Assembly: GCA_017609985.1 (NCBI GenBank)
Contig: JAFCCW010000001.1
Coordinates: forward strand, 16,397-80,396
From: Candidatus Iainarchaeum sp.
GTDB taxonomy: Archaea; Iainarchaeota; Iainarchaeia; Iainarchaeales; JAFCCW01
Direction of reading: 5' to 3'
DNA length: 64,000 bases
Shown: piece by piece, positions 6,917 to 30,221 of the stretch
How positions within the stretch are numbered: the stretch's first letter is position 1
How the letters are laid out: each line of letters starts with the position of its first letter
Translations under genes and position numbers: made by a program
The notes under the pieces: model-generated
Told to the model about the DNA's origin: nothing
Seen by the model: the letters and a program-made list of their open reading frames with translations, nothing else
Databases searched by the model: none

Positions 6917-6925
6917 TTAAATCAC

Positions 6926-8672: not shown

Positions 8673-8913
8673 TAGAAAAACCCCAACATATATTGAACTT
8701 GCTCGGAAGGTTTTAAGGAATTAATGAAATAGGACTCAGAAAAGAACAAAAACAAGCATTTAAAAAAACTAAGATTGAATAATATTTTATGTGGCTTGAA
8801 AGAAGGTGTTTTCGGACAGTGCAGCGGTAGTGCACTTTTCCAGAAAATTAAAGAAAAAAACTGTACTGATTCTGTAACAACCTTTGAAGAAGAGCCAAAC
8901 GGAGGCGTGAAAA

Positions 8914-13461: not shown

Positions 13462-13611
13462 TAAAAAAAGAACTGCGGAAAATCCTTTAAACCCGTGTTT
13501 TTGGCAATTCAAGGAAAAAAGCTGAAAAAAACAGCAATATTTAAACAGGTTTTCCAAATAAAAATATTGATTGCATAATTAATTGAGTAAAAAATTTACA
13601 TTGCAAAAAAA

Positions 13612-14776: not shown

Positions 14777-16204
14777 ATGGAACCTATTTGCAAAATAAGC
14801 AATAAAACAGAAAATAAAAAAAATGAAATGCTGTTCTGGCCCTTGCTTGTTTTAGGTTCAATTATTATTCGAAGCATGATTGAAGGAGTTCTAGAAATAC
14901 AACACGAAATGGAAACCATTTTCAATATTTTTGTGCATTATCCATTGTGGAATTTTTGTCTCTTTATTGTACTTGCAATAATGATTGTGATAGTGTCCGG
15001 AGAAAAAGCAGAAAAAGTAACAAAATTTCTTGCAAAAGTCTGGCCCGCGGTAATTCTTGTCCCCATAATTGATTTTATTGTGTCAGGAGGAACTGGATTT
15101 TCAATAAACTACATCATCACTGAACTGAATCAATTGCCTGCTTTGTTTTTAGAAGGTGGAGGAAAATTTGTGACACCGGGACAAAACACAATAGTGTTTG
15201 GAGCAGTTGGCCTGTTCAGCATTTATGTTTTAAGAAAAACAAAAAACATTTCAAAAGCAATCGCAACAGGATTTGCAACTTACTCACTAGTGTTTATTTA
15301 TGCGGCAGCACCAAGTTTTATGCTCGCGCTGACCGGAACAGGAATTAGCTTAATTGGAACAGAGGGTGTTCTTGCAAGAAAACTGATTATTGTTGGATAT
15401 GGATTCCTGCTAGTGGGAGAAACTATATTGCTTGGGCTAGTCTGGAACAAGAAAAAAATTATTGAACTAATAAAAAATTCAAAACCAGAGCGAGCACTCC
15501 TTTACTCTTCACTGGCTTTGCTTGGAGCGATGATTGCGGGAGTCAGCCACGGATTTGAACTTGGCGCAGTAATGAGTGTGGCAGCAATAGCATTTGAGTC
15601 AGGATTGCTGTTAAACAATGCATTTGACAAAAACCACAAAACCTGTCTTGAAAAAAGAGAATTAAAGAATTTTTCAGTTTTTCTGGCAGCAATTGCTCTG
15701 GCAATAGCTCTGACAATCAGCACAGAAGTTGGTTTGTTGACCTTAGTGGCATTGATTAGCTCAACAGTTTATTCTTTGCCAAAGGGAATAAAACAAAAAA
15801 CAGGTTTTGCAAATAATTTCTTTCTTGCGGGAATTGCACTGCTCGAAGTTGGCACAGGATATTATTCACAGTTTCCAAAAACAGGTTTTCCAATAGAATA
15901 TTGTTTGCTTTTGATTATGGGGTTGGGACTTGCATTCAATGCAAAAGACCTAAAGGACTCAGAAGAAGACAAAAAAGAAGGAATCAGAACACTGCCTGTT
16001 TTACTGGGCTGGAAAAAATCAAAGATTTTTATTTCGGGACTGCTTGCCCTGGCTTATCTGCTGGTGCCAGTGTTCACAGGATTATTTTTTATGCAAGCAA
16101 TTGTGTTTGGAATTGCAAGCAGCATCATCTTTTACAAAACCGGAAACGAAAAAATATCCATTGTCTTATTTTTTGGTTTTTTGCTTTCCATTGCAATTGT
16201 GTGA
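14777..16204 (+). CDS. polytopic membrane protein with a C-terminal UbiA-type prenyltransferase signature
   Basis: NAKDLKDSEEDKKEGIRTLPVLLG fits the second Asp-rich UbiA motif. The candidate first motif reads LNNAFDKNHK, i.e. NDxxDxxxD degraded to NNxxDxxxK. About 230 N-terminal residues are additional TM helices. Confidence 0.5.
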   Translation: MEPICKISNKTENKKNEMLFWPLLVLGSIIIRSMIEGVLEIQHEMETIFNIFVHYPLWNFCLFIVLAIMIVIVSGEKAEKVTKFLAKVWPAVILVPIIDFIVSGGTGFSINYIITELNQLPALFLEGGGKFVTPGQNTIVFGAVGLFSIYVLRKTKNISKAIATGFATYSLVFIYAAAPSFMLALTGTGISLIGTEGVLARKLIIVGYGFLLVGETILLGLVWNKKKIIELIKNSKPERALLYSSLALLGAMIAGVSHGFELGAVMSVAAIAFESGLLLNNAFDKNHKTCLEKRELKNFSVFLAAIALAIALTISTEVGLLTLVALISSTVYSLPKGIKQKTGFANNFFLAGIALLEVGTGYYSQFPKTGFPIEYCLLLIMGLGLAFNAKDLKDSEEDKKEGIRTLPVLLGWKKSKIFISGLLALAYLLVPVFTGLFFMQAIVFGIASSIIFYKTGNEKISIVLFFGFLLSIAIV

Positions 16205-16290: not shown

Positions 16291-16686
16291 ATGCAAGAAA
16301 AAAGAGGCCAAACATCGCTAGAATATCTAAGCACAGTGGGAATTATACTAATTGTGATAGCAGGACTTGTGAGCTATGCCTTTGTAATATACCCGGAATA
16401 TGTTCAGATAAGCACTATGAACAAAAGCCTTAGAACTTTGAAGAGTGCGGTAAACTCTGTTTACTCGCTCGGGCCAGGAAACTCGGAAACAATTGAAATT
16501 GAAATAACTTCCGGAATTCAGGGTTCAAGAGTATTCAATAATCTTCTGGAATTTACATACGATGACGGAGCAGTTACACAAATTCTCGTGACTCCAAATT
16601 TGCACGGCACACTCCCAATTACCCGGGGCAGACATAATATTCTTGTAAAAGCAGTTGATGAAAATGTTTTGATTCAGGAGATTTAA
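16291..16686 (+). CDS. class III signal peptide (archaeal type IV pilin-like) protein 1
   Basis: N-terminus MQEKRG^QTSLEYLSTVGIILIVIAGLV: basic n-region, Gly at -1, Gln at +1, Glu at +5, then a hydrophobic helix. Confidence 0.85.
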   Translation: MQEKRGQTSLEYLSTVGIILIVIAGLVSYAFVIYPEYVQISTMNKSLRTLKSAVNSVYSLGPGNSETIEIEITSGIQGSRVFNNLLEFTYDDGAVTQILVTPNLHGTLPITRGRHNILVKAVDENVLIQEI

Positions 16687-17052
16687 ATGAAACAAAAAAA
16701 AGGCCAGGTTGCCCTTGAAACAATAGCAGGAATTGGAATAATCCTTTTCATGTTCCTAATAGTTTCTGTTGACAGCCTGAACAAGTCAATAACTCAAGAA
16801 ACTGTTGAAAATTTAGTGAAAGACGGAGCAAGATGCAGAACTATTGCTGAAAACATTACATCAGCCTATGTTCAAGGAAAATATTCAAAAATAGAAATTT
16901 CAACAGAATTTGATGTGAATATTTTGGGGAACGAAGTCAGTGTCGGAAACACAACCTGTCCAGTTCTTGGAAGAGTACAGGACGCAGTACTTGAAAAAGG
17001 AATAATTGTCTTGAAAAACAGTGACGGAATAGTGGTGCTGGAGAATGAATAA
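16687..17052 (+). CDS. class III signal peptide (pilin-like) protein 2
   Basis: MKQKKG^QVALETIAGIGIILFMFLIV. The start codon directly abuts the stop of the previous gene. Confidence 0.85.
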   Translation: MKQKKGQVALETIAGIGIILFMFLIVSVDSLNKSITQETVENLVKDGARCRTIAENITSAYVQGKYSKIEISTEFDVNILGNEVSVGNTTCPVLGRVQDAVLEKGIIVLKNSDGIVVLENE

Positions 17053-17527
17053 AAAAGGCCAAATCGCAACATATGACCTCTTGTTTGCAATAATCATATT
17101 TATGGGAATTTTTGTTTTAATGAACAGCATATGGGTGGAAAATTATTCCAATGCCATAAAAAAAGAAGAAACAAAAAGAATGCAATTCAGTGCAAAACAG
17201 GCAATGAAAATATTTGTTGACTCTTCAGGATATCCCGCAGACTGGACTTCAGGAAACGTAGAAATACCAGGGCTGTTAAGAGAGTATGGAGCAAAAAAAA
17301 TAAGCAATGAAAAAATAACAGAGCTTGCGGGAATGGACTATGATGCAATAAGGAGCTTGCTCAAAATAGAAGAATATGATTTTTTTCTGTCAATAGATGC
17401 TCTTGGCGAAAGCCATGACCAAAACATTGGAACTGTTGTTCCAGCAAACTCAAAAGCAGTACAGCTTGAGCGGGTTAGATACTATCAAGGAGGGGCTGCT
17501 TCAATTGCACTCACACTTTTTAAATAG
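17045..17527 (+). CDS. class III signal peptide (pilin-like) protein 3
   Basis: MNKKG^QIATYDLLFAIIIFMGIFVLM. There is an 8-nt overlap with the previous gene. Confidence 0.85.
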   Translation: MNKKGQIATYDLLFAIIIFMGIFVLMNSIWVENYSNAIKKEETKRMQFSAKQAMKIFVDSSGYPADWTSGNVEIPGLLREYGAKKISNEKITELAGMDYDAIRSLLKIEEYDFFLSIDALGESHDQNIGTVVPANSKAVQLERVRYYQGGAASIALTLFK

Positions 17528-19853
17528 CAAAAAAGGATTTGTTTTTACAATGGAGGCAGTGATAGCTCTCTTGTTTGTCGCAGGATTTATTATAGTAGCA
17601 GCATCAACCTCCACCCCAGTAAACGAAAGCACAAAAGAAACAGGTCTTGAATCAAAAGAGCTTCTTCAAGGAATTGCACTAGGCATTGATGTGAACGGGG
17701 TTGCACTGGAAGTGCTTGACAGAAATGGAATAACTGCAACTGAGAAAATGAACATAATAAAAGGAATAATTGACTCAAGACTGCCAGCAAGTTTTGAATC
17801 AAGAATAGAAATAAGACAATACGATTCAAATGTAGTAGAATGCAAAACAGGATTAAGCTTTGAAGACTGTTTCACAGAGCTTGGAACATTTCCAGCAACA
17901 GGACAAGCAGTTCCGGAAGACAGAGCAGTCCATCACGAAAAGTTTATGATTGTAAAAAAACAGCCGCCGGCAATGTGTGAAATAAGAGCCGAGGCAATGA
18001 GCCTTGAAAAAGAATTAAGCATTGGAAACAAAAGTATTGAAGAAATTTTTCCAGAAATCTTTTTTGGAGAAACAAAAGTGAAAAATGAGGCAAAGGGAGA
18101 AACCCTGTTTTTTGCAGAAAACGATTTAAACATTATTTTCGGAGCCAGTATGACTCCAAGCGGAGACGTGGAATGTGATGAAACAATAAGAGTTGATTTG
18201 AATGCAACTGTCCCAGACTACGGAAGATTGCCAGCAGACATTGTGCTAGTGCTGGACATAAGTGGAAGCATGATAGATTTTATGAATTTTGGAAAATTTG
18301 GAGACGGGTCCTTTAACAGCGGAACATACAACAAAGACTGGATGGGCTGCTATAATTATGGAAATTACCAGACATTGATGAGTTATGAAGCAACAGTTGA
18401 AAACGAGTTAGCAGAAATAACTCCAAGCCCAGAACACAGATTTGGAGGAATAAGAATAAGGCTTGGAAACTATTCATACAGCGGAGACTGCTCCCGCCCA
18501 ATTGTAAGACTTAGGTTTCCAGACAATTCAGTCGAAGATGATGGATCAAATGCTGTAACCTGGACAGAAATGCTGCCAGAGGGAACATATACAGTGGAGG
18601 GCTGGAGTGATGACCTGATAAATTATGATTTGAACATCGACATTCCAAAACTAAGGATTGCGAGAATTGCAGCAAAAACCTTTGTTGACCTCGCAGACTG
18701 GAAAAGTCAGGACCATATAGGACTGGTGTCCTATAGCGACACCACAGCAACAGAAGAAATTCTCACAAATGACAGAAACGCAATAAAAGATGCACTTGAC
18801 GATCTTAGAACTGGGGGCGGCACAGCAACAGGAGAAGGAATTTATGAAGCAACAGACGAACTTCAAGAGCCTTCAACAGGACACGGCAGAGCAGGAGCAA
18901 TGTCCTTCCAGATACTTCTTTCAGACGGGCAGACAAACTCAGGAAGAAGCTCTTCAGGAGCAGCAACAGATGCTGCAAGCAAAGACATCATAATCTACAC
19001 AATAGGGTTTGGAGAAGATGCAGACGAAACAGAGCTTGGAAACATTGCAAGCATTACAGGCGGAGAATATTATTATGCTCAAGACATCAACATATTGAAT
19101 GACGTGTATGAGCTAATAGCTCTTCAAATAGGGGCTGATTTAAGCCAGACAGAACCAGAAGTAGCCTATGATTCAAACATAAGTATTCCAATTCCAGAAT
19201 GGGCAGAAGTAACAGATTTGGGTGGAGGAACAATTGTAGAAAAAGCAGACGGAAACTATCTTGAATTTGATATAGGGCTTTTAAATGCAGACAACCCGTG
19301 GACAGGATATTTTGAAATAAATTTTCCATGCAACAATGAAAATGCCTGCGCAACAAGCCAGCTAACTTTTCCCCCAGACGGAACAAAATTTGGTTATGAT
19401 GATGGAGACGGAATTCCACAAGACCTGATAAACTTTGACGAGAATATTACTGTAAACTTCAAGTACAGGGATTTGGCAATAAAAGTGAATACTGCAGAAT
19501 TGATTGGAGACAATATGATAAAACTGGATGTGAATGTGTGGAACAATGGCTGGCTTTCATCAAACGCAAGCTATCTAGACTTTTACCTGCACGACCCAAT
19601 AACTGGAAACTTTATTAAACAAGAAACAGTCAATGCATTTTGCGCAGGAAAAGACCCAGCCTGCTCAAACTATATCCAGCTGTTCATAGATCAGGATATT
19701 GGAACAGAAGGATTTATTTATGCAATCGTCAACAGGGACGGAGCAATTTCAGAATGTCCAAACAACAATGTTGTAGAAATATACTGTTACGGCGGTTCAA
19801 AAACCCAGTACTATCTGATGGAGCTATGGATCTGGAGAAAGGGGGCAGAATAA
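17505..19853 (+). CDS. large pilin-like protein with a vWA/MIDAS domain (candidate pilus-associated adhesin); probable TTG start
   Basis: TTG at 17505 lies 11 nt after AAGGAGGGG (17487-17495) and yields (M)HSHFLNSKKG^FVFTMEAVIALLFVAGFIIV. MIDAS elements are LVLDISGSM, GGGTATGEG and LLSDGQTNSG. The longest ORF (ATG 17397) would overlap the upstream gene by 131 nt, and ATG 17550 would remove the charged n-region. Confidence 0.75.
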   Translation: MHSHFLNSKKGFVFTMEAVIALLFVAGFIIVAASTSTPVNESTKETGLESKELLQGIALGIDVNGVALEVLDRNGITATEKMNIIKGIIDSRLPASFESRIEIRQYDSNVVECKTGLSFEDCFTELGTFPATGQAVPEDRAVHHEKFMIVKKQPPAMCEIRAEAMSLEKELSIGNKSIEEIFPEIFFGETKVKNEAKGETLFFAENDLNIIFGASMTPSGDVECDETIRVDLNATVPDYGRLPADIVLVLDISGSMIDFMNFGKFGDGSFNSGTYNKDWMGCYNYGNYQTLMSYEATVENELAEITPSPEHRFGGIRIRLGNYSYSGDCSRPIVRLRFPDNSVEDDGSNAVTWTEMLPEGTYTVEGWSDDLINYDLNIDIPKLRIARIAAKTFVDLADWKSQDHIGLVSYSDTTATEEILTNDRNAIKDALDDLRTGGGTATGEGIYEATDELQEPSTGHGRAGAMSFQILLSDGQTNSGRSSSGAATDAASKDIIIYTIGFGEDADETELGNIASITGGEYYYAQDINILNDVYELIALQIGADLSQTEPEVAYDSNISIPIPEWAEVTDLGGGTIVEKADGNYLEFDIGLLNADNPWTGYFEINFPCNNENACATSQLTFPPDGTKFGYDDGDGIPQDLINFDENITVNFKYRDLAIKVNTAELIGDNMIKLDVNVWNNGWLSSNASYLDFYLHDPITGNFIKQETVNAFCAGKDPACSNYIQLFIDQDIGTEGFIYAIVNRDGAISECPNNNVVEIYCYGGSKTQYYLMELWIWRKGAE

Positions 19854-20834
19854 ATGAATCAGAAAGGAATGATGTTTACCCTAATGGCTCTATTTTTGGT
19901 TCTTGGAATAATTGCATTCAACGAAGACTCTATGAGCAAATGGATGCTTGAAAGCGAATCAACAAAATCAATAGATATTTCATCAGTAGAAAACAAGTAC
20001 GCAAACATAATGGAAACCGTGATTCTCCTGCACACAAACAGCTACAGAAAAGAAATTGATGAAAGAAACATTCCGTTTACGTATCTTTGGGCAGAAGACA
20101 GCAATTCAATAGAAATAAAGCAAAACATTCCCCTGAACACTGTTGATCTTGAAAACTATTTCAATTTTATAAACATATACAATTTTTATCTCTCAGACAA
20201 CAACTACAACAATGTATTTGACGGGCTCGAAATTGATATGAATTCAATAAAGAATGCTCCCTGGGGAGGAACAACTGAAGAACTTCGTTTTTTGGTAAAG
20301 CCCTTTTGTTATCAATACAGAGTAAATGGCGAAGAAGAAATGATACTAGAGGAAGCAAAAACAAAAAAATGTTCAGGAGTGTTTGTTCAATCAAACATTG
20401 CCAGATTTGACATAACCGTAGCAGTAAGAAATTTTGAAGAAGATTTCAATGTGATTAGCTGCAGTGGAGGCGCATGCCCGGAAGACGCGTTCAATCCCGC
20501 AAGCACAGACCCATACTATAGGATAGAAATAAACGATGAAAACTGCGGAAACTGCAACTTGAGCCAGAAAGTGATAAGCAAACACTTTGCATGGGGCTCA
20601 GATAACAACATAACTATTTACAACGACGGGGGCTCACCAGAGTCAACAGAAGTAAAAATAAGAATTAAAGACGATGTAAACATAAGCCGGTATGGAGAAA
20701 AAAGCATTGAAATAAGACTTAAAACAGAATTTGAAGAAGACATAAAGTCTTTTGAATTTCTTGACTTCAACTACACTGTGTACAGCAGGGACGGAAAAGT
20801 GAGAAAATCAAACAATCCGCTAGCAATTGAATAA
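19854..20834 (+). CDS. class III signal peptide-like protein 5
   Basis: MNQKG^MMFTLMALFLVLGIIAF. The start abuts the stop of the vWA gene. The rest of the protein is Asn/Cys-containing and has no recognised domain. Confidence 0.7.
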   Translation: MNQKGMMFTLMALFLVLGIIAFNEDSMSKWMLESESTKSIDISSVENKYANIMETVILLHTNSYRKEIDERNIPFTYLWAEDSNSIEIKQNIPLNTVDLENYFNFINIYNFYLSDNNYNNVFDGLEIDMNSIKNAPWGGTTEELRFLVKPFCYQYRVNGEEEMILEEAKTKKCSGVFVQSNIARFDITVAVRNFEEDFNVISCSGGACPEDAFNPASTDPYYRIEINDENCGNCNLSQKVISKHFAWGSDNNITIYNDGGSPESTEVKIRIKDDVNISRYGEKSIEIRLKTEFEEDIKSFEFLDFNYTVYSRDGKVRKSNNPLAIE

Positions 20835-20935
20835 ACACAAGAAAAATAAAAACTTAAAAATAAAAACTTAAAAATTAAAAATAAGAAAAATTAAAATAGG
20901 GAGAAAAAACAAATTAAAGAAACACAAGTGATTGA

Positions 20936-21841
20936 ATGAAAATACTTGAAGCCCACGAAATAACAAAATGCTTTGAAGACAAAAAAGCAGTTGACACTGT
21001 TTCGCTCTCGGTCAACAAAGGCGACTTTTTTGGACTGCTTGGGCCAAACGGGGCAGGAAAAACAACTCTTGTTAGAATCCTCATGAGCTTGAGAAACTAT
21101 GATTCTGGAAAAATATGGCTGTTTGGAAAAGAAAAATTTGGAGAAGAACTTCTTGAAAAAATAGGGTATCTTCCGGAAGAAAAAGGACTTTACGAAGAAA
21201 ACACAGGAATTGAAAACATTTGTTATATTGCTTCGCTTAAAGGAATCAAAAAAGAACAAGCAGAAACAGAGGGAAGAAAGCTTCTTGAAAAAATTAAAAT
21301 GGAAGAATATGCAGATAAAAAAGTAAAAAAAATGAGCAAAGGAACAAGACAAAAAATACAGCTCGTGGCAACACTCGTGCACGACCCACAGCTTTTAGTG
21401 CTTGACGAACCATTCTCGGGACTCGACCCATACAGTGTAAAGCTCATAAAAAGACTGTTGCTGGAGCTTCACAGCAAAGGTAAGACAATAGTGCTGAGCA
21501 CCCACCTAATAAATACAGTTGAAGAAATGTGCACGCGAATTTTAATGGTGAACAATGGAAGAAGAATGCTTTATGGAGACATTGATGATGTGAAAGAAAG
21601 ATATGCACAAAACTCAATTGTTGTTGAAACAAGCTCGGAAATAAAAGATTTAGAGGGTGCGGACCATATTGAAAGATACGGAAGCAATGTAGAAATAGCA
21701 ATAAATGTTACAAAAACACCAGAAGACATACTAGAAGAACTTTTGAAAAGAAAAATAAAGATTTCAAAATATGAAGTAAAAGAACTTTCACTGAATTCTA
21801 TTTTTATAAAACTTGTGGAGGCAGAACAATGGATAAAGTAG
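20936..21841 (+). CDS. ABC transporter ATP-binding protein
   Basis: Walker A GPNGAGKTT, a signature-like MSKGTRQKIQL, and Walker B LLVLDEPFSGLD. Confidence 0.9.
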   Translation: MKILEAHEITKCFEDKKAVDTVSLSVNKGDFFGLLGPNGAGKTTLVRILMSLRNYDSGKIWLFGKEKFGEELLEKIGYLPEEKGLYEENTGIENICYIASLKGIKKEQAETEGRKLLEKIKMEEYADKKVKKMSKGTRQKIQLVATLVHDPQLLVLDEPFSGLDPYSVKLIKRLLLELHSKGKTIVLSTHLINTVEEMCTRILMVNNGRRMLYGDIDDVKERYAQNSIVVETSSEIKDLEGADHIERYGSNVEIAINVTKTPEDILEELLKRKIKISKYEVKELSLNSIFIKLVEAEQWIK

Positions 21842-22692
21842 TCAGCATTCTAAAACACGAGTTTATGACAAACTTCAAAAGAACAGAATACAAGTTTCTG
21901 ACATTCTTAATTCCAGGACTTTTTCTGCTGGCAGGAGCATCCACTCTGTTAATAGATCAAACACAAACAGCAGCAATTCTAAGCACGTTTTCTTCACAAA
22001 ATATTTTCTTCACAATTCCAATGAGTTTTGCAATGATTTTCGGACTGACTATTCTGACATCATCTGGATTTTTGCTGAATGGAATGGCAAAAGAAAAAGA
22101 AAACAGGTTAATGGAAGTAATGCTTACTTCAATAAGTTTCAAAAAAATACTGCTTGGAAAAATTATAGGGCTAGGTTTGCTTGGATTGGTTCAAGTAACA
22201 GCATGGCTTGCATCAATAGCAATTGTTTTCCTACTCTTTATCCCGCCAACGATAGGAACAGGAATAAATCTTCCAGGACTCGGAACACTGGCTTTTTTTG
22301 CAGCAATATATTTTTTCACAGGATATCTCTTTTTTGCATCACTTCTCGCAGGAATCGGAGCACTGGCAAATGACTTGAGGCAAGCACAACAAATCGGTTC
22401 ACTCATAACTGTTTTTGCACTGTTGCCTGCGTGGTCATCAATAATGCTTGTCTCAGCATCAAACTCGCTTGCAGCAAAAGCAATGAGTTATTTTCCAGTG
22501 ACTGCGCCAGTGACAATGATAATTAGAATTTTTCTCGGAGGAGTTGAAACAGGAGAAATAGCCATAAGCATTGTCTCCCTGCTTGTTTCAACAATAGCAG
22601 TCATACTTGTTTCAGGTTATCTGTTCAAATCAGATTCACTCATAAAAGATATTGAAAAACAGATGCAAAAAGCAGGAAACAAAGCTGAATAA
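21829..22692 (+). CDS. ABC-2 type transporter permease
   Basis: A 13-nt overlap with the ATPase gene. About 6 TM helices with a large first loop, the typical ABC-2 layout. Confidence 0.75.
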   Translation: MDKVVSILKHEFMTNFKRTEYKFLTFLIPGLFLLAGASTLLIDQTQTAAILSTFSSQNIFFTIPMSFAMIFGLTILTSSGFLLNGMAKEKENRLMEVMLTSISFKKILLGKIIGLGLLGLVQVTAWLASIAIVFLLFIPPTIGTGINLPGLGTLAFFAAIYFFTGYLFFASLLAGIGALANDLRQAQQIGSLITVFALLPAWSSIMLVSASNSLAAKAMSYFPVTAPVTMIIRIFLGGVETGEIAISIVSLLVSTIAVILVSGYLFKSDSLIKDIEKQMQKAGNKAE

Positions 22693-22781
22693 GAACCAGG
22701 AATAAAAATTCAAAGGAAGGTTTATTAAAAAGAAATAATATAAAAAGAAGGGGAACAGCTCAAAAAGACAGGCGTGGCTAA

Positions 22782-24803
22782 ATGACAAAAAACAAAAGAA
22801 AAAAACAAGGATTCTTTCAAAGACTCTTCTTAAACAGGATATTCAAAAGGATGAGAAAACTTTTGGGAAAAAGTGAAAACAAGCAAGACAAGGAGATGAA
22901 AAAATATGTTGAAAGCGAACTTGACAAGATTTCAAAAGTACACAATTTAAGCAAAAAGGCAGAAGAGGAAAGAATACAGGCATTGAGTGAAAAAGTTGAA
23001 AAGCATGTTCAAAAAGAGAAAGCAGGAAAAGCAAGAGTTCCCCTGAAACCAATACTTGAATCAAGAATAAAAAATGAGAAAACAAAAGAAACTGAAAAAT
23101 CAATGAAAGAAACAGGTCTGAAAACGAAAACAACTAAACTGAAAACAGCAACAAAGACAAAAAAAGCCAAGTCACGAAAAAAGAAAATAAGTGCGAAACC
23201 AAAGAGAAAAGAAAAAAAAATAACCAGTAAAAAAAAGACTGTTAAAAAAGCAAGTGTTTCAAAAAAGAAAAAAAAGAAACCAGCGAAAAAAGATACTGAA
23301 ATTACTGCAAAGCAAAAAGATGTAAAAGAAATCAAAGAAGAGCTTAGAAAACTTAGAAAAAGCCAGCCAAAGGATTCTGGTTCAAAACAAAAAATAAAAA
23401 AGCTTGAAGAAAAACTTAAAAATCTTAAATTAAACTCTGTTGAAAAAGAAAGATACCAAAAAATGCAGAAAAAACTGCTTCAAGGATTTGAAAAAGTTGT
23501 AAAACAACAAAAGATTCCTTCAATTCAGATAATTTTAAACCAATTGCAAAACGCGGAAACACCAGACGAAAAAATAAAACATTACAAAGAACTTTTGAAA
23601 AGAGCAAAATATGAATATTACAAAATGAATCTTTCGCCAGACCAATACAAGAGAATGGTTCTTGAATATGATCACGGAATAAGAGAACAGTTGATTGAAA
23701 AAAAAGTCAAGAAAAAAGAATCAAAAAAGAAAGGAAAAAATAAGACTCAAAAAATCACTGTAAAGGTTACTAAATCAAAACAAAAAACCAGCAGAAGCCC
23801 GCCTTTTCAGATAGATGTTGGAAAGGCAGTGGAAGCCCAACAGCAGCCAGTTCCCGAACCAAAACAAGCAAGAGAAATTCCAGAACCGCCTGCAAAAGAA
23901 CAAGAGCCTGTTCCAAGAAAGCGCGAAGAACGAGAAAAGAGCGAATTTTCCAAGGAAGATCCAAAACCAGAGAAACCAGTTAAAATTCAAAAACCATTTA
24001 AACAAGTCAAACAAGAAATTCAAAAACAAAAAATAATGCCCGCGGCAGCAGAAAAGCCTGCTGAAACTAAAAAAACTCGCGAGAATGGAAAAATTAATGA
24101 AATAAAGGAACTGTTTAAAGATGATGAAGAAGAAAAAAGATCAGAACCAGGAGCAGCAACAATTAGTGCTGAAAGAAGAGACCAAAAAATTCAGGCAATG
24201 GTCAGAGAACACTCTCCCGAAATGACACAAGACCAATCAAGAGAAATTGAAAACAAAATACAAGAAGCAATGAAAAAATATGAAGTAAGCCATAAAGAAA
24301 TAAGCCAACACCTGTCCCATGTTGAATCAAACAATCTTGTTCAAGACTTTGACAAGCTTATTGGAATGATTGAAAAAGACAGAGGAATTAACCGAGGAAG
24401 CGTTGTAAGGCACGAAGTTATTCCTGACATGCCGAAAGGATTTGAAGCAAAAAAAGAAGAAAAAGCAGTGAGCAAAGAAATCAAAGAATTTCAAGTTGAA
24501 ACAGACTATGACAGAATTATGAATATTGTGCAAGAAAAAGGCTCAGCAAGCGGAAAAGAAATAGCAAAACTGCTCAACATCACTCCTGCAGAAGTAAAAG
24601 AAAGAAGCCAAGTGCTGGAAGACAGTGGATTAATCAAGCTAGAGTATCCCGCAATAGGGGGAATAAGAATAGTTGATCCTGAAAAAGAAAAAAAAGACAA
24701 AGAACTGAAAGAAAAGGAAAAAAAAGACAAGGAAGAAACAGCGCTGAAAGCAAAACAAAAAAAAGAAAAAAAGGGGGAAAAGGAAAATGATGCAAAAGCA
24801 TGA
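22782..24803 (+). CDS. lysine-rich low-complexity protein with a C-terminal winged-helix-like domain
   Basis: 673 aa. Long K/T/S/E tracts (KTKTTKLKTATKTKKAKSRKKKISAKPKRKEKK) and a Pro/Gln/Glu segment. Near the C-terminus, DYDRIMNIVQEKGSASGKEIAKLLNITPAEVKERSQVLEDSGLIKLEY has an HTH/wHTH pattern. It overlaps the ATPase gene by 17 nt. Confidence 0.7.
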   Translation: MTKNKRKKQGFFQRLFLNRIFKRMRKLLGKSENKQDKEMKKYVESELDKISKVHNLSKKAEEERIQALSEKVEKHVQKEKAGKARVPLKPILESRIKNEKTKETEKSMKETGLKTKTTKLKTATKTKKAKSRKKKISAKPKRKEKKITSKKKTVKKASVSKKKKKKPAKKDTEITAKQKDVKEIKEELRKLRKSQPKDSGSKQKIKKLEEKLKNLKLNSVEKERYQKMQKKLLQGFEKVVKQQKIPSIQIILNQLQNAETPDEKIKHYKELLKRAKYEYYKMNLSPDQYKRMVLEYDHGIREQLIEKKVKKKESKKKGKNKTQKITVKVTKSKQKTSRSPPFQIDVGKAVEAQQQPVPEPKQAREIPEPPAKEQEPVPRKREEREKSEFSKEDPKPEKPVKIQKPFKQVKQEIQKQKIMPAAAEKPAETKKTRENGKINEIKELFKDDEEEKRSEPGAATISAERRDQKIQAMVREHSPEMTQDQSREIENKIQEAMKKYEVSHKEISQHLSHVESNNLVQDFDKLIGMIEKDRGINRGSVVRHEVIPDMPKGFEAKKEEKAVSKEIKEFQVETDYDRIMNIVQEKGSASGKEIAKLLNITPAEVKERSQVLEDSGLIKLEYPAIGGIRIVDPEKEKKDKELKEKEKKDKEETALKAKQKKEKKGEKENDAKA

Positions 24804-26298
24804 TGTTCTCGAATCCTATTCAGTAAACTTGGAAGAAATTGAGATTGAAATACACATCATTGAAGAAAAAAAAGAATTTGTAAGACAATACTACTTAAAT
24901 CTCCCTCATTTTGGAGCAGGAACAGAGGCTTTGCTGAAAAGACTTAAAACAGGAATTTTGTCAGAAACAAATATTCAAATAGAAAGAAGCCTTGATGCAG
25001 AATTTATCAAAAAAGTAAAAAATAGTTTCAGAGAAAGAGCATTTACAATTCTTAAAAAAGAAATTCCTGACGCAGACGAAAAAACAATGAAAACAATTGT
25101 TGCAGTGCTGTTGCAGGAAATGCTTGGACTAGGCCCAATAGAATTTATGCTTGCAGACCCAAATCTTGAAGAAATAGTAGTAAATCAAAGCAAAGAACCA
25201 GTATGGGTATACCATAAAAAATACGGCTGGCTGAGAACAAATATTTCAATCAAGCCAGAAGAAGAAATAGAAAACTATGCAAATATTATTGCGAGAAGAG
25301 TTGGAAAACAAGTTACAACACTTAACCCGCTGCTTGACGCGCACTTGGTAACAGGAGACAGAGCAAACGCAACGCTTTTTCCAATTTCAACAAAAGGAAA
25401 CACAATAACCATAAGAAGATTTAGAAGAGACCCCTGGACTGTAACAGATTTCATAAAAAACAAAACAACTTCCAGCGAACTAATGGCACTCATCTGGACA
25501 GCAATGCAGTATGAAATGAATATTGTGCTAAGCGGAGGAACAGCTTCAGGAAAAACATCATTCATGAATATTTGCATGCCTTTTATTCAGCCAAACCACA
25601 GAGTAATAAGCATTGAAGACACCAGAGAAATGCAACTTCCAGAATACCTGCATTGGGTTCCACTGACTACAAGAGAGCCAAATGCAGAAGGCAAGGGCGG
25701 AGTAAAAATGCTTGACCTGCTTGTAAACAGTCTAAGAATGAGACCTGACAGAATAATTGTCGGAGAAATTAGAAGACAAAGAGAAGCAGAAGTCTTGTTT
25801 GAAGCAATGCACACAGGACACAGCGCATACACTACATTTCACGCAACAACAGCAGAAGAAACAGTCAGAAGGCTAACAAATCCCCCTATTCTTGTGCCAC
25901 CATCAATGCTTGACGCAATTCACCTGAATGTAGTAATGTTCAGGAACAGAAGACTAGGAGTTAGAAGAGTATTGCAGGTTGGAGAAATTTTAACAGAAAG
26001 AAGAGGAGAAACAGAGTCAGTTAAGGCAAATGTTCTTTATAGATGGAAACCAACAGACGACACAATAAGCAAACACTCAGATTCAATAAGACTCTATGAT
26101 GAACTAGGTCTGCACACTGGACTCAGCTACAAAGAAATCGAACAAGAACTTGAAAAAAAGAAAAAAATACTTGACTATATGGTAAAGAATGATATTCACG
26201 CAATAGGAGAAGTAGGAGCAATCATGGCAAAATTCTACATGGATGAAAAAGAAGTAGTATCAATGGTTGAAAAAAACAAAAAAATGGAGATTGAATGA
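24787..26298 (+). CDS. type II/IV secretion system ATPase (archaeal FlaI/PilB/TadA-like)
   Basis: Walker A SGGTASGKTS; the Asp box and Walker B region RPDRIIVGEIR; the His box HTGHSAYTTFHA. Confidence 0.9.
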   Translation: MMQKHDVLESYSVNLEEIEIEIHIIEEKKEFVRQYYLNLPHFGAGTEALLKRLKTGILSETNIQIERSLDAEFIKKVKNSFRERAFTILKKEIPDADEKTMKTIVAVLLQEMLGLGPIEFMLADPNLEEIVVNQSKEPVWVYHKKYGWLRTNISIKPEEEIENYANIIARRVGKQVTTLNPLLDAHLVTGDRANATLFPISTKGNTITIRRFRRDPWTVTDFIKNKTTSSELMALIWTAMQYEMNIVLSGGTASGKTSFMNICMPFIQPNHRVISIEDTREMQLPEYLHWVPLTTREPNAEGKGGVKMLDLLVNSLRMRPDRIIVGEIRRQREAEVLFEAMHTGHSAYTTFHATTAEETVRRLTNPPILVPPSMLDAIHLNVVMFRNRRLGVRRVLQVGEILTERRGETESVKANVLYRWKPTDDTISKHSDSIRLYDELGLHTGLSYKEIEQELEKKKKILDYMVKNDIHAIGEVGAIMAKFYMDEKEVVSMVEKNKKMEIE

Positions 26299-27185
26299 AT
26301 CTAAAAATTCCCTTTGCGCCATTGCCTGTTCCGGTTCTGAAGAGAATAAGCAACATATTCATTTCTCCAGGATCTAAATTTGCAAAGTCAATGCCTTACA
26401 TAGAAGAAAACCTAAAACAGGGAAACTTTGAAATTCAGTCAGAAGAGTACTGCTCGATAATGCTTTTCACAAGCCTGCTGTACTTTGTTTTCTTCACACT
26501 GCTTCTTGGCCTGCTATTGTCAAAAATAGGGTTAAGAGGTGGCTGGCTTTTAGCTGCAACTGTTGGAGCAATAGTGGCATTTCTGATTGCACTGCAAATA
26601 TTGATTTATCCAAAAATGATGGTAAACAAAAAAGTGAAAAATATTGAAATCAACCTGATATATGCACTGAGAACAATTCTTATCCAGATAAGAAGCGGAG
26701 TAACACTTTTTGATGCAATGAACACAGTGGCAAAGGGAGACTTTGGAGAACTGGGAAATGAATTCAAGATAACAGTTGAAGCAATAGAAACAGGAATGCT
26801 GCAAGACGAAGCACTTGACAAAATGGCGGAAAGAAACCCGTCACACTATCTCAGAAAAGCTCTTTGGCAAATTTCAAACGGATTAAAAGCAGGAGGAGAT
26901 GTGCAGTCAGTAATTGGAGAAAGTGTTTCAACAATGCTAAGGGAAGAAAAAATAGGAATAACAAAATTTGGAGCATCCCTTAGACTGCTTTCCCTGATGT
27001 ACATGATGATTGGAGTCATAATGCCGGCAATGGGTTTAACATTCCTTATTGTTCTAGGCTCTTTTCCAAATGTTCCGCTGGACGAAAGTCTTTTTTGGAT
27101 ATTATTAATTTCAAGCGCAATAATGCAGTTTATGTATATTGGAATAATTAAATCAAAGAGACCAAATCTTATGAGCACCGGGTGA
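26295..27185 (+). CDS. type II secretion system F-domain platform protein, first of two (TadB-like)
   Basis: Single T2SF-type cytoplasmic helical domain (LRTILIQIRSGVTLFDAMNTVAKG...ALWQISNGLKAGGD) flanked by TM helices. It overlaps its neighbours by 4 nt on each side. Confidence 0.8.
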   Translation: MNLKIPFAPLPVPVLKRISNIFISPGSKFAKSMPYIEENLKQGNFEIQSEEYCSIMLFTSLLYFVFFTLLLGLLLSKIGLRGGWLLAATVGAIVAFLIALQILIYPKMMVNKKVKNIEINLIYALRTILIQIRSGVTLFDAMNTVAKGDFGELGNEFKITVEAIETGMLQDEALDKMAERNPSHYLRKALWQISNGLKAGGDVQSVIGESVSTMLREEKIGITKFGASLRLLSLMYMMIGVIMPAMGLTFLIVLGSFPNVPLDESLFWILLISSAIMQFMYIGIIKSKRPNLMSTG

Positions 27186-28186
27186 AAAAAATGTATCAAA
27201 GAATAGCAGCAATATTACCAAAAAGTTTTGTAAACTGGATTCAATCAGAACTAGACTTTGTGGGAATCAAAGTAGATGAAAGACAGTTTGCAGGATTTGT
27301 AGTATCGTTTGGAATAGGATTAAGCATTGCAGTAGCAATAAATCTTCAAGTATTTCTTGAACTTGCTTTTCCAATAGGATTCTTTGGAACATTAATAGTC
27401 TTTGTTGGAGGAATGCTTTTCTGGATAAATTCAGTTGCAGAAAACAAGGGAAAATTTGTTGAAAGAATTCTTCCGGATGCACTCCAGTTGATTGCGTCAA
27501 ATATCAAAGCAGGAATGACAGCTGAAAGAGCATTGATGGCGAGTGCAAGACCAGAATTTGGACCACTATCAGAAGAATTCAAAAACGCAAGCAAAAAAGT
27601 GTTTGCAGGCACTCCATTTGACACTGCACTACTGGAAATTGCAACAAAAATCAAGTCACCACTGCTCAAAAGAACAATATGGCTGTTAACACAGGGAATA
27701 AAAAGCGGAGGAGAAATCGCAGACCTATTACTGCAAATTGGGTCAGACCTAAGAGAAGAAAACGCGATAAAAGATGAAATACAGGGAAACGTAAGCATTT
27801 ACGTGCTGATGATATTTGTTGCAGCAGCATTTGGCTCACCACTGCTGTTTGGAATGAGCTCGATTGTTGTTGGAACACTCTCAGAACAGATGGATAATGT
27901 AGACCTTTCCCCTGAAAAACTTGCCGAAATGCAAACCCAAAGCAGAGTAGGAAACATTATAGGAGTGCCAACAGCATCAATAACAGAAGAATTTGTAGTA
28001 TTCTTTTCAACGATTTCACTACTAGTAATATCTGTTTTTGCATCACTGACACTGGGAGCAATAAGCTCTGGCAAGGAAAAAGACGGAATAAAATACATTC
28101 CAGTGCTGATTCTGATGACAATAACTATCTTCTTTGTGATAAGAATATTCATCGGCGGAGCAATAGGCTCACTTGGAATGATGTAA
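27182..28186 (+). CDS. type II secretion system F-domain platform protein, second of two (TadC-like)
   Basis: Single T2SF-type domain (LQLIASNIKAGMTAERALMASA...IWLLTQGIKSGGE) plus TM helices. Confidence 0.8.
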   Translation: MKKMYQRIAAILPKSFVNWIQSELDFVGIKVDERQFAGFVVSFGIGLSIAVAINLQVFLELAFPIGFFGTLIVFVGGMLFWINSVAENKGKFVERILPDALQLIASNIKAGMTAERALMASARPEFGPLSEEFKNASKKVFAGTPFDTALLEIATKIKSPLLKRTIWLLTQGIKSGGEIADLLLQIGSDLREENAIKDEIQGNVSIYVLMIFVAAAFGSPLLFGMSSIVVGTLSEQMDNVDLSPEKLAEMQTQSRVGNIIGVPTASITEEFVVFFSTISLLVISVFASLTLGAISSGKEKDGIKYIPVLILMTITIFFVIRIFIGGAIGSLGMM

Positions 28187-28283
28187 TCAACAAGGCAGAA
28201 ACAAAACTAATTGAAGATAACTAACTCTGCAAAAGAAATAAAAAAAAGAAAAAAAAAGAAAAAGAAAGAACGGAAAACAATCA

Positions 28284-28739
28284 TTAGATTGTTCCGTTAC
28301 AAACTATTTTTGCTGTGGCTGGTAAAGTGCCTTCTGTTGTGTACAACACTGTAGCAGTAGCGCCAGTGACGTTTCCGGCAGTAGCAGGACCATCAAGCGT
28401 TGTGACTGTAAATGTTGAACCTGCCGCAACAGTTCCAGCAGTACATTCAGCTGTGCCTGCACAGTCAGTAATCCCTGTACCATCACACGAAGTTACACAA
28501 TTATCCACAAGTGTTATTGTTCCACCCGTAGCATTCTGCAGTGTAAATCCAACCGCATCAGTACCAAGACTAAACGTGCTCTCTTTCAGAATAATTGAAT
28601 TATTCTGGCTGACACAGGTAACTCCTCCGCCTGTTGTACTGGTCACATAAATAAGGATTCCGATTACAATCGCAATCACGATAAGTGCCCAGCCATAGGT
28701 CATCAAATACTCAAGAGCTGCTTGTCCTTTTTTTTCCAT
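28284..28739 (-). CDS. archaeal type IV pilin (probable major subunit)
   Basis: MEKKG^QAALEYLMTYGWALIVIAIVIGILIYV followed by a Thr/Gly/Ala-rich beta-type domain. A strong SD, AAGGAGGGAAAAC, precedes the ATG on the minus strand. Confidence 0.9.
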   Translation of the reverse strand: MEKKGQAALEYLMTYGWALIVIAIVIGILIYVTSTTGGGVTCVSQNNSIILKESTFSLGTDAVGFTLQNATGGTITLVDNCVTSCDGTGITDCAGTAECTAGTVAAGSTFTVTTLDGPATAGNVTGATATVLYTTEGTLPATAKIVCNGTI

Positions 28740-28841: not shown

Positions 28842-29315
28842 TTATTTAAGGGCTTTTTTAAGAGAAAGCTCAACCTTTTTTGGAACAAAACAGGACACGT
28901 TCCCGCCCATTTCAGCAATTTCCTTGACCATTGAAGAGCTTAAATAGAAATATTTTGGGTCTGTCACAATGAGAACAGTTTCAAGATTTCCCAGCTTTCT
29001 GTTAACAATAGCAGTCTGGAATTCAAATTCAAAATCGGAAAGTTCGCGCAAGCCACGCACTACAGCAGAAGCTTTTTTCTTTTTAGCATACTCAACAAGC
29101 AAACCAGTGAAAGATTCAACCTCAACACCCTTAACATCAGACAACGCATCTTTAGCCAGCGCAATACGCTTTGCCACAGAAAAAGTCGGCTTCTTTCTCG
29201 GATTGTTGGAAATAGCAACAGTTACTTTTCCAAAAAGCTTGGCTGCACGCTTTACAACATCCACGTGACCAAAAGTAATAGGATCAAACGTGCCAGGATA
29301 AATAACTCTATTCAT
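28842..29315 (-). CDS. coaD: phosphopantetheine adenylyltransferase, bacterial CoaD type
   Basis: YPGTFDPITFGHVDVVKRA (the T/HxGH nucleotidyltransferase motif in the bacterial CoaD context). Length 157 aa, with ISSSMVKEI near the C-terminus. Confidence 0.9.
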   Translation of the reverse strand: MNRVIYPGTFDPITFGHVDVVKRAAKLFGKVTVAISNNPRKKPTFSVAKRIALAKDALSDVKGVEVESFTGLLVEYAKKKKASAVVRGLRELSDFEFEFQTAIVNRKLGNLETVLIVTDPKYFYLSSSMVKEIAEMGGNVSCFVPKKVELSLKKALK

Positions 29316-29874
29316 TCAAATCCCTCAAAATTTTCAAAACCTGCTCAGCAGTAAAATCAATGCTTCTTGAATTATCTAAAGAGTAATCAGCCTTTTTAAG
29401 CTTTTCATCAAAAGGCATCTGGCAGTCAATCATCTTAACTGCAAAATCCTTTGAAAAACCACGGGATTCAAGTCTTGAAATTTGCTGAGAACGAGAACAG
29501 GTTACAACTGCAACAGCATCAAACAGGCTTTCCCAGCCAACCTCAAACAAGAGAGGAACATCAACAACAACAAGCTTGCAGGACAAAGAAACAAGTTTAA
29601 GGAAACTGTCTTCAAGCTCGCTTTTGACAAGAGGGTGAAGAATTGATTCAAGCTGTTCTCTCTTCACAGGGTTCTGAAAAACAATCTGAGAAATAACTTC
29701 CTTGGAAGAAGAGCCAAAAACAGAGGCAATTCTGTCAACAACCTGCGGCAGAGAATAAAGAGAGTCAACAATCTCGTCGCAGTCAATTGTTTCAGCAGAA
29801 TTTTCGCTAAAAAGCTTCAGAACAGTTGACTTTCCAGAAGCAATTCCTCCAGTTAAACCAAGCTTAAACATCAA
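29308..29874 (-). CDS. coaE: dephospho-CoA kinase, bacterial/eukaryotic CoaE type
   Basis: GLTGGIASGKSTV P-loop at the N-terminus; 188 aa; 8-nt overlap with coaD. Confidence 0.85.
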   Translation of the reverse strand: MMFKLGLTGGIASGKSTVLKLFSENSAETIDCDEIVDSLYSLPQVVDRIASVFGSSSKEVISQIVFQNPVKREQLESILHPLVKSELEDSFLKLVSLSCKLVVVDVPLLFEVGWESLFDAVAVVTCSRSQQISRLESRGFSKDFAVKMIDCQMPFDEKLKKADYSLDNSRSIDFTAEQVLKILRDLNE

Positions 29875-29902
29875 ATCACTGAAAGAAGTAATGCAAAAAG
29901 AT

Positions 29903-30074
29903 TAATAAAAAGGAGATGGAACAAGAGAAACAGAAGAAAATAAAGAAAAGAAATGGAAACAAAAGGGAAAAAGAAGAGAAAAGAAAGAGAAAAAAGAAAA
30001 GAAAGAAAAGAAGCAGGAAAAAAGCACGGGAAAAAAGAGAAAACAAGAGAAAAAACAGGAAAAAAACAGCTTGA
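29903..30074 (+). repeat. about 170-nt polypurine (A/G) tract, which could encode a 52-aa ultrabasic peptide (29916..30074)
   Basis: Almost uninterrupted A/G on the + strand (AAGAAAAGAAAG-type units). An in-frame ATG at 29916 and TGA at 30072-30074 give MEQEKQKKIKKRNGNKREKEEKRKRKKKRKKRSRKKAREKRENKRKNRKKTA. Confidence 0.6.
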
Positions 30075-30119
30075 AAAAAACCAAATTTTTAGTCAAAAAA
30101 GAGTTTGAAATCCTAAAAA

Positions 30120-30130: not shown

Positions 30131-30155
30131 TAGTAAGTTATGCGAAAATAATAAT

Positions 30156-30221
30156 GTGACCTAACAGCGGAGGAATCTTGTCTCCTTCGGGGGATGGACT
30201 TTGACGCTGTTAGGGTAGCAC
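30156..30221 (+). ncRNA. candidate structured small RNA, class unknown
   Basis: 10-bp stem CCTAACAGCG (30160-30169) / CGCTGTTAGG (30205-30214). An apical hairpin CTCC-TTCG-GGGG (30182-30193) sits between two symmetric 10-12 nt internal loops. Local GC is clearly above the surroundings, and a T-rich stretch (TTCTTT) follows. Confidence 0.4.

Follow-up and report, generated by a model that had tools for sequence, protein, structure and literature searches.

A stretch of the Candidatus Iainarchaeum sp. genome very probably carries, judging from its gene content, a genuine and conserved type IV pilus (type IV filament) gene cluster, broken by unrelated insertions. The organism belongs to the Iainarchaeota, one of the DPANN archaea. 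The stretch analyzed here (the window; 64,000 nucleotides) spans positions 16,397 to 80,396 of contig JAFCCW010000001.1 in assembly GCA_017609985.1, and represents 64 kb of the genome. The focal locus occupies 16291-28739 in window numbering, which is used throughout. Type IV pilus loci have already been described in DPANN archaea, and the Iainarchaeota locus is an added member. The best lead to come from its analysis is a winged helix-turn-helix (wHTH) protein, encoded directly upstream of the assembly ATPase across DPANN phyla.

Open reading frames (ORFs) g01 to g12 are all present at the coordinates given in a preliminary description of this DNA. Five closely packed plus-strand genes (g01 to g05) begin with class III signal-like N-termini, just as that description reported, and both the N-termini that it quoted and its spacing of 0 to 23 nucleotides (nt) are correct: g01 and g02 adjoin with no gap, as do g04 and g05; g02 and g03 overlap by 8 nt; and g03 and g04 overlap by 23 nt (from the TTG at 17505). 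An ABC-2 ATPase and permease pair follows the pilin block, as described, with both families confirmed by Pfam. Then comes the coupled core block: the Lys-rich wHTH protein (g08), a FlaI/TadA-like ATPase (g09), and two single-domain platform genes (g10 and g11), which overlap successively by 17, 4, and 4 nt; here too the overlaps and Pfam assignments agree with the earlier account. The convergent pilin gene said to close the locus is g12, on the minus strand, and its strong Shine-Dalgarno sequence is GGAGG, 7 nt 5' of the ATG (preceding sequence, AAAGGAGGGAAAAC). Profile hidden Markov model (HMM) searches, a check proposed at the same time, found the Pfam families VWA in g04, T2SSE in g09, and T2SSF in g10 and g11. 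The description also called the locus a complete machine, which needs revision: the A24 prepilin peptidase gene sits elsewhere in the window, 34 kb away. The locus as delimited is not complete; the whole window is.

Class III signal peptides were located with a motif scan: [KR]G[QFMILVA] had to occur among residues 1 to 14, with a hydrophobic 15-mer after it. The scan of the window yields eight ORFs: six from the locus, a stand-alone pilin-like protein (54789-55478), and one antisense ORF. Controls give a mean of 0.1 in 20 triplet shuffles, and 1 in the reversed sequence. Seven of the eight, namely the six from the locus and the stand-alone protein, are credible as pilin-like from their sequences. 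This number, set against the 0.1 expected, places the locus with the type IV filaments by this measure. Gln occupies position +1, and Glu position +5, in five of the seven pilins. For the six locus pilins, the signal peptide assignments come from the motif scan together with conservation among orthologues. Features of its sequence make g12 the likely major pilin. Its domain of about 115 residues contains 6 Cys and 4 N-x-S/T sequons, and its N-terminal type, GQ[SA]A[LM]E[YF]LMTYGWA, recurs in related loci, often as tandem copies. A TTCAAAGG-like motif common to the regions 5' of g08 and g12 was considered as a possible operator and set aside; it may be chance in an AT-rich genome.

Both an assembly ATPase and platform (T2SSF) proteins, as in the type IV filament superfamily, are encoded in the core block. 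The Walker A (GGTASGKTS), Asp box, Walker B, and His box motifs of g09 are intact, and the segments SIEDTRE, RPDRIIVGEIR, and TGHSAYTTFHA are seen in alignments with GspE2, FlaI, and CpaF. Compared with structures in the PDB, g09 scores 233 bits with Archaeoglobus fulgidus GspE2 (2oap), over its full length including the N- and C-terminal regions; 193 with FlaI; 167 with CpaF; and 82 with VirB11. Compared with NCBIfam models, it scores 297 bits with FlaI (cut-off 550), 188 with TadA, 145 with VirB11 (TIGR02788; cut-off 250), and 145 with the bindosome ATPase BasE (far below cut-off). From this score order and the intact motifs, g09 is therefore of the filament-assembly type and not of the conjugation type. 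(An ATPase of the VirB11 clade had been named beforehand as a finding that would speak against a pilus; it is not borne out, with 82 bits for VirB11 against 233 for GspE2.)

Three other machines were considered and rejected. For conjugative, VirB11-type type IV secretion, the same PDB comparison and the TIGR02788 score decide. For an archaellum, the FlaI score of g09 stays well under the model's cut-off, the locus proteins include no archaellum families in Pfam or NCBIfam, and the nearby KaiC-like protein g15 scores 38-43 bits on ArlH/FlaH versus 152-168 on archaeal KaiC families (NCBIfam). For a bacterial Tad pilus, the locus proteins have no Pfam matches to Flp pilin, secretin RcpA, or TadZ; the stand-alone pilin scores only 16 bits with Flp_Fap (cut-off 32).

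The two platform proteins are paralogous (30% identity over the T2SSF domain). Treating them as the N- and C-terminal halves of FlaJ/UpsF was tried, and the argument from fission order was dropped; the NCBIfam coordinates are ambiguous. The A24 peptidase has both catalytic Asp residues, about six to seven hydrophobic segments, and a soluble insert before the last segment; it has no NCBIfam or PDB match. Its gene lies directly downstream of an SRP54-like gene, with an FtsY-like gene near. These two identities were read from sequence only; it is a neat neighborhood for pilin membrane insertion and processing.

Relatives of the ATPase were sought in one genome per species. At least 596 were found, and the 80 best, all from DPANN archaea, were taken as loci for counting synteny (many of the contigs are truncated). 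One more locus, L081 (GCA_964622495.1), was found through g05 and added, for a total of 81; its g05 is 68% identical, and its ATPase 83% identical over the aligned part. The closest ATPases among the 80 come from Candidatus Iainarchaeum metagenome-assembled genomes (60-68% identity), and identity is 53-59% to loci of Woese-, Nano-, Aenigmat-, Nanohalo-, and Altiarchaeota. The Iainarchaeota share a conserved order: the transglutaminase-like gene (minus strand); g01 to g05; wHTH protein, ATPase, platform a, and platform b; pilin, CoaD, and CoaE (all minus strand); and a pair of KaiC-like genes. The pilus cluster reaches past the focal coordinates, taking in the transglutaminase-like gene, the KaiC-like pair, the extra pilin, and the A24 peptidase.

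Several points weigh against the pilus reading. The cut-off of PF04021 (Class_IIIsignal) is reached only by the stand-alone pilin, so the six locus proteins among the seven with signals fall below it. The major-pilin role of g12 is drawn only from its position, its Shine-Dalgarno sequence, and its conservation. The AlphaFold2 model of g05 is unusable (pLDDT 41; built from 3 sequences).

The wHTH protein is as constant a part of these loci as the platform proteins. In g08, 22.9% of the residues are Lys, and the wHTH domain is C-terminal. The domain, about 65 residues long, has the consensus xTDxDxLYxxV..K....L...AK...I.....EEW..ILE...LI...YPA.G.PEL. In 73 of the 80 loci, spread over the DPANN phyla, a family HMM built from 45 members detects exactly one such ORF, which always shares the strand of the ATPase gene and lies immediately 5' of it. 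The distance between the two genes in these 73 loci ranges from a 39-nt overlap to a 351-nt gap, and they often overlap. In five of the seven loci without the domain, the contig ends less than 400 nt upstream. The preliminary description had listed the Lys-rich wHTH protein as content beyond the textbook archaeal pilus set; its synteny with the core in relatives marks it as conserved content.

Members of the family match generic wHTH Pfam families only, and these in part (TrmB, 8 of 45; HTH_24, 4 of 45); the profile matches the wHTH domains of IclR and LrpA weakly (E ~1e-5). An AlphaFold2 model gives a confident three-helix, three-strand wHTH, with pLDDT >90 over the domain. A fold search with the model of the g08 C-terminus finds only generic wHTH regulators (MarR, ArsR, and TFE types), and does not separate the possible functions of g08. 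Helix 3 (E-E-W) and the tip of the wing (G-E-P-E) both carry conserved acidic residues. An exhaustive profile search over 1.84 billion representative proteins yields 2145 matches at E<=1e-3 and 1006 at E<=1e-10; among the best 152 representatives, the wHTH is C-terminal in 130, and transmembrane (TM)-like segments are present in 122. The searchable texts on archaeal and DPANN pilus loci (including PMC6393860 and PMC11291902) hold no mention of this conserved domain. Other proteins that end in a wHTH do appear next to crenarchaeal pilus genes in the neighborhood tables of Makarova et al.

The rest of the protein varies by lineage. The N-terminal part is Lys/Glu-rich with no TM segment in the Iainarchaeota; contains 2-6 TM segments in the Woese- and Nanoarchaeota; and is CBS-like in the Aenigmatarchaeota. 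In the Nanohaloarchaeota the wHTH domain comes first, ahead of a coiled coil and then a C2H2 zinc finger. One nanohaloarchaeal locus (L055) encodes a 666-residue coiled-coil protein (5959-7959), an A24 peptidase with an Arc_PepC domain (8269-9243, minus strand), and a wHTH-coiled coil-C2H2 zinc finger protein (9319-9996); the last lies directly upstream of the ATPase, and the 666-residue protein is separate from this wHTH protein. A further representative protein (P0041, 657 residues) comprises five tandem wHTH copies, with Lys/Glu/Pro-rich linkers between them.

The preliminary description also singled out the vWA pilin (g04) as unusual content, and this gene too keeps its place beside the core: homologues are present in 14 of the 20 closest loci, as well as in L081. 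By sequence, g04 is a vWA modular pilin, with a class III signal, a putative N-terminal pilin fold, and a vWA module with a metal ion-dependent adhesion site (MIDAS; general pattern DxSxS...T...D). The start of the MIDAS, DISGS, is intact and lies at residue 251, and DxSGS is kept in 14 of 19 orthologues, which share the N-terminus [KR][GA]|[FY]xF[ST][LM][DE]. Comparison of the sequence with Pfam coordinates indicates about 125 residues inserted between the DxSxS motif and the remaining vWA fold. A vWA modular pilin, PilB, acts as an adhesin in Streptococcus sanguinis (PMC8179133). Like g04, this bimodular protein joins a class III signal and pilin module to a vWA domain with intact MIDAS, and has an insertion (the 'arm') beside the MIDAS. 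Unlike PilB, g04 is archaeal, is larger, has Phe at +1 and a long β-rich C-terminal region, and shows no detectable sequence relationship beyond the vWA domain. The next gene encodes the Cys-rich, Iainarchaeota-specific g05. Its homologues are present in 16 of the 20 close loci and in none of the 60 distant loci, and the 13 orthologues share 5 invariant and 3 nearly invariant Cys columns; g05 has no Pfam or NCBIfam family match.

Several known systems invite comparison. Makarova et al. 2019 (PMC6393860, Fig. 2A) reported pilus islands in DPANN archaea that combine FliI-like, TadB, and TadC genes with unrecognizable pilins; Hamm et al. 2024 (PMC11291902) reported that two pilus loci, which include coiled-coil proteins, are conserved in cluster 2 DPANN; and Sivabalasarma & Albers 2026 (bioRxiv 10.64898/2026.04.22.720090) found system 1, along with some 4A loci that have two platform genes, in DPANN archaea. 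These loci share with ours a FlaI/CpaF-like ATPase, two TadB/TadC-like platforms, divergent pilins bearing class III signals, and accessory proteins, either charged or coiled-coil, that adjoin the ATPase. The present locus differs in coming from the Iainarchaeota, which are cluster 1 DPANN.

The Epd pilus of Methanococcus maripaludis likewise has two single-domain platforms, pilins with Gln at +1 (QxxxE(Y)), several minor pilins, one of them adhesin-like, and linked genes of the transglutaminase-like and KaiC/FlaH-like types. It differs in that the ATPase here resembles GspE2 and FlaI more than it does the Tad ATPase, the ATPase gene precedes the platform genes, the locus pilin is globular, a wHTH partner is present, and the 64-kb window gives no evidence of an EppA-type peptidase. 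Euryarchaeal clade 2, or system 2 (A. fulgidus GspE2; Haloferax volcanii PilB3-PilC3), resembles the locus in its ATPase, with GspE2 the best structure match and a weak PilB3_C match, and in the two tadC genes and KaiC linkage reported for the clade (PMC4858521). The pilins here are not of the haloarchaeal PilA (DUF1628) type, however, and system 2 has a single platform gene in the 2026 classification (bioRxiv 10.64898/2026.04.22.720090). The bacterial Tad system (TadA/CpaF, TadB, TadC, and TadG) also has an ATPase gene followed by two single-T2SSF genes, a vWA pseudopilin (TadG), and, immediately before the ATPase gene, an accessory gene (TadZ there, wHTH here). In contrast to Tad, the locus lacks a secretin, RcpC, TadD, a TadZ/ParA-like ATPase, and a Flp pilin; CpaF scores below the archaeal ATPases; and the envelope is archaeal.

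From homologous bacterial and archaeal machines we infer the following mechanism. The A24 peptidase would cut a short basic leader, after [KR]G, from the seven pilin-like proteins. A hexameric g09 would power a platform formed by g10 and g11, which would pull mature pilins out of the membrane and polymerize the major pilin, g12. The g01 to g05 block would provide a priming or tip complex of minor pilins, in which g04, through its MIDAS-containing vWA module, may act as the adhesin with the Cys-rich g05 as its partner. As a fixed partner of the ATPase throughout the DPANN archaea, g08 would serve as an adaptor or scaffold, membrane-tethered in most lineages, and here Lys-rich with no TM segment. 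The KaiC-like ATPases encoded nearby probably modulate activity. A role in adhesion or host attachment is plausible.

The wHTH protein can be read in more than one way. The reading that we favor, at not quite an even chance, is that g08 works in the cytoplasm as an adaptor or scaffold, holding the ATPase at the platform or controlling it there; an operon-specific regulator is nearly as likely. The adaptor, as a stoichiometric partner of the ATPase, is favored because of the strict adjacency, the frequent gene overlap, the membrane tethering, and the acidic wing. Two observations run counter to it: the structural neighbors of the modeled wHTH are ordinary DNA-binding regulators of the MarR, ArsR, and TFE types, and the combination of variable N-terminal modules (CBS-like, C2H2, or TM) with a constant wHTH looks like that of one-component regulators. 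Both fit a transcription factor that autoregulates the pilus genes and is no part of the machine, a possibility of real weight: the wHTH is canonical by sequence (the IclR and LrpA matches) as well as by model, the CBS-like and zinc finger parts (Aenigmatarchaeota and Nanohaloarchaeota, respectively) are sensor-like, and archaeal type IV pilus loci often hold regulators. A regulator accounts less well for an adjacency to the ATPase gene that holds across phylum-level divergence as strictly as the platform genes' does, with most exceptions near a contig edge, and for the frequent gene overlap; for TM segments in about 80% of the representatives; and for acidic residues kept in helix 3 and at the wing tip. 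A sharper form of the adaptor reading is more doubtful: the protein with the ~65-residue wHTH would be an obligatory cytoplasmic subunit of the DPANN pilus motor, tethering or gating the ATPase at the split platform by a membrane anchor or a Lys-rich region. The domain could also be taken to handle DNA, were the machine not mainly an adhesion pilus; it would then serve as a short, bindosome-like pseudopilus that displays or secretes proteins, or as a filament for DNA uptake or exchange. Type IV filament machines perform diverse functions, the genomes of DPANN archaea are reduced, the ATPase matches BasE (145 bits), and its partner bears domains of a nucleic acid-binding type. This alternative is nevertheless improbable: BasE scores well short of its cut-off and lower than FlaI and TadA; no substrate-binding proteins with class III signals, ComEC-like channel, or HerA/VirB4-type translocase were seen at the locus; the wHTH is predicted to be cytoplasmic, not extracellular; and a dedicated pilin of the abundant type together with a vWA adhesin pilin suits adhesion better.

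The lineage of the pilus and the extent of its accessory set also admit alternatives. Makarova et al. 2016 (PMC4858521) associated clade 1 (Epd) with two TadC genes, found the same in many clade 2 loci, and linked pilus loci to KaiC, vWA, and transglutaminase genes. In the definition of Denise et al. 2019 (PMC6668835), Epd-like and Tad systems have two platform genes with one T2SSF domain each, major pilins that are short, and a secondary ATPase beside the main one. The Tad/Epd-like label of the preliminary description is only partly right: the split platform and the Gln+1 pilins agree with it, whereas the ATPase is nearer to GspE2 and FlaI than to CpaF and TadA, and g12 is globular rather than short and Flp- or EpdE-like. 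True membership in the Epd/Tad lineage (clade 1, or system 1), with an EppA-dependent type of pilus, a TadB/TadC-like platform split by fission, and a major pilin that is short, Flp-like, and encoded elsewhere, is rather unlikely. It would accord with the two single-T2SSF platform genes, the Gln +1 and Glu +5 residues of most pilins, the PF04021 match of the stand-alone pilin, a transglutaminase-like neighbor as in clade 1 loci, a KaiC/FlaH-like ATPase near the core, and the report of system 1 in DPANN archaea. Yet two single-T2SSF platforms are not exclusive to that lineage, given that clade 2 often has two tadC genes. The ATPase scores run GspE2 > FlaI > CpaF and FlaI > TadA, with a weak PilB3_C match; this comparison of scores points away from the Tad side. 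Gene order is ATPase and then platforms, unlike epdJ-epdK-epdL. The peptidase in the window, with its roughly six to seven hydrophobic segments, gives no sign of the 9-TM EppA form. And g12, the only pilin beside the core, has a globular domain, not the mature length of about 60-70 residues with no globular domain that a short major pilin would have; this comparison extends over the 64-kb window.

The ABC-2 pair, counted in the preliminary description as accessory content of the machine, is on sequence evidence a recent lineage-specific insertion between two conserved blocks and no part of the pilus system, because it is absent from all 81 related loci, including the close relative L081. There the vWA pilin, g05, K-rich wHTH protein, and ATPase genes are contiguous. 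In other Iainarchaeota, g05 is followed after 48-150 nt by the wHTH gene, or else by an unrelated Cys-rich protein of about 370-400 residues with an FN3-like end. AT-rich spacers of 101 nt and 89 nt flank the pair. That the pair is a functional accessory, such as an exporter for pilin modification or assembly, is very improbable, even though it lies on the same strand between the pilin and core blocks and GldA-type ABC transporters are linked to motility in Bacteroidetes (from the NCBIfam name only). The protein in the slot of the ABC pair was seen in seven loci (L003, 7055-8257; L006, 7376-8491; L009, 8250-9335; L014, 8057-9199; L015, 8217-9350; L019, 8315-9448; L035, 8269-9402). It is secreted or anchored, is about 360-400 residues long, and has the Cys-rich motif C.DGT..G.CS...P..C.....L...C..CGC with an FN3-like C-terminus; it has no homologue within the window.

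A thioredoxin-fold membrane protein gene and a UbiA-like gene, absent at that position in close relatives, look like a second lineage-specific insertion, between the transglutaminase-like gene and g01. A homologue of the thioredoxin-fold membrane protein adjoins the pilus core in three related loci (L041, L047, and L079). Since g05 and g12 are both Cys-rich, a link of this protein to pilin disulfide handling is possible.

Table. Features of the window in order of position, with the number of related loci (of 80) in which each was found; in N-termini, / marks the predicted cleavage site.
Feature	Position	Strand	Evidence	Loci (of 80)
Secreted vWA protein, 552 residues	5258-6916	-	Pro-rich PDPNPNPGPEPAPEP linker	
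Transglutaminase-like (cysteine-protease fold) protein	12853-13557	-	Pfam CEPT76_peptidase and DUF553, marginal or below cut-offs	10
Thioredoxin-fold (CPHC) protein fused to polytopic membrane domain	13612-14745	+		
UbiA-like prenyltransferase, long N-terminal membrane extension	14777-16204	+		0
g01, minor pilin-like protein 1, 131 residues	16291-16686	+	Signal MQEKRG/QTSLEY; N-terminus G/Q..(E)Y conserved in homologues	34
g02, minor pilin-like protein 2, 121 residues	16687-17052	+	Signal MKQKKG/QVALET	10
g03, minor pilin-like protein 3, 160 residues	17045-17527	+	Signal MNKKG/QIATYD	31
g04, modular pilin with vWA (MIDAS) module, 782 residues from TTG 17505	17505-19853	+	Signal ...SKKG/FVFTME; Pfam VWA, E 1.5e-22	20
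g05, Cys-rich pilin-like protein, 326 residues	19854-20834	+	Signal MNQKG/MMFTLMA	16 (all among the 20 closest)
ABC ATPase (DrrA/GldA-like)	20936-21841	+	Pfam ABC_tran with DrrA C-terminal domain, NCBIfam	0 (nor in L081)
ABC-2 permease	21829-22692	+	Pfam ABC2_membrane_3	0 (nor in L081)
g08, Lys-rich protein with C-terminal wHTH, 673 residues, no TM segment	22782-24803	+	HTH_24, E 9.7e-8; wHTH at residues 571-631	73
g09, PilB/FlaI-family assembly ATPase, 503 residues	24787-26298	+	Pfam T2SSE, E 5.8e-32; weak PilB3_C match	80
g10, platform protein a, 296 residues	26295-27185	+	One T2SSF domain, Pfam E 8e-13	74
g11, platform protein b, 334 residues, GTG start	27182-28186	+	One T2SSF domain, Pfam E 4e-16	72
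g12, candidate major pilin, 151 residues	28284-28739	-	Signal MEKKG/QAALEYLMTYGWA; globular Thr/Gly/Cys-rich domain	39 (N-terminus)
CoaD and CoaE	28842-29874	-		10 and 9
Purine-rich tract, ~230 nt	29875-30100			
Hairpin, 65 nt	30155-30220	+	UUCG loop; dG -32.5 kcal/mol, z -3.7 versus shuffles	
g15, single-domain KaiC-like ATPase	30300-30998	+	Pfam KaiC, E 2e-63; often directly after platform b	35
g16, degenerate KaiC-like / DUF7504 protein	31008-31790	+		19
Transglutaminase-core protein, 556 residues	50016-51686	+	C-terminal membrane anchor	
Extra stand-alone pilin-like protein, 229 residues	54789-55478	+	MNSKKG/QGAIEYLLL; PF04021, 32.9 bits (cut-off 23.7)	
FtsY-like protein	58562-59899	+		
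SRP54-like protein	61167-62528	+		
Prepilin (class III signal) peptidase, A24 family, 271 residues	62535-63350	+	Pfam Peptidase_A24, E 1.2e-10; D22, GGGD76	

The surroundings of the cluster hold further features. The transglutaminase-like protein is a conserved divergent neighbor, with homologues (41-61% identity) just upstream of the pilin block in the Iainarchaeota loci counted in the Table; transglutaminase peptidases have been linked to type IV pilus loci (PMC4858521). On the other side, the pilin gene is adjoined in nine to ten Iainarchaeota loci by genes for CoaD (phosphopantetheine adenylyltransferase) and CoaE (dephospho-CoA kinase) of the bacterial type; such genes are uncommon in archaea and were probably acquired horizontally. 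Between CoaE and the KaiC-like gene is a GC-rich hairpin, preceded by the purine-rich tract; the hairpin belongs to no Rfam family, and none of the 80 related loci has a matching sequence. Outside the locus, the secreted vWA protein and the transglutaminase-core protein are further candidates for a place at the cell surface or a part in adhesion.

The life of DPANN archaea is thought to hinge on contact with other cells or with surfaces, for which pili are the obvious candidates. The locus supplies a clean parts list for an Iainarchaeota pilus: a minor-pilin block, a candidate vWA tip adhesin, the wHTH partner, the ATPase, a split platform, a likely major pilin, the KaiC pair, and the peptidase. 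Comparison with related loci separates these conserved parts from local insertions. Moreover, the near-universal wHTH partner, with some 2,000 representative members, is a testable lead on how archaeal pilus motors are anchored or regulated. If it is indeed an obligatory motor subunit, it would be a functional counterpart of ArlX, PilM, GspL, or TadZ made from a winged-helix fold, a class of component so far undescribed for type IV filament machines.

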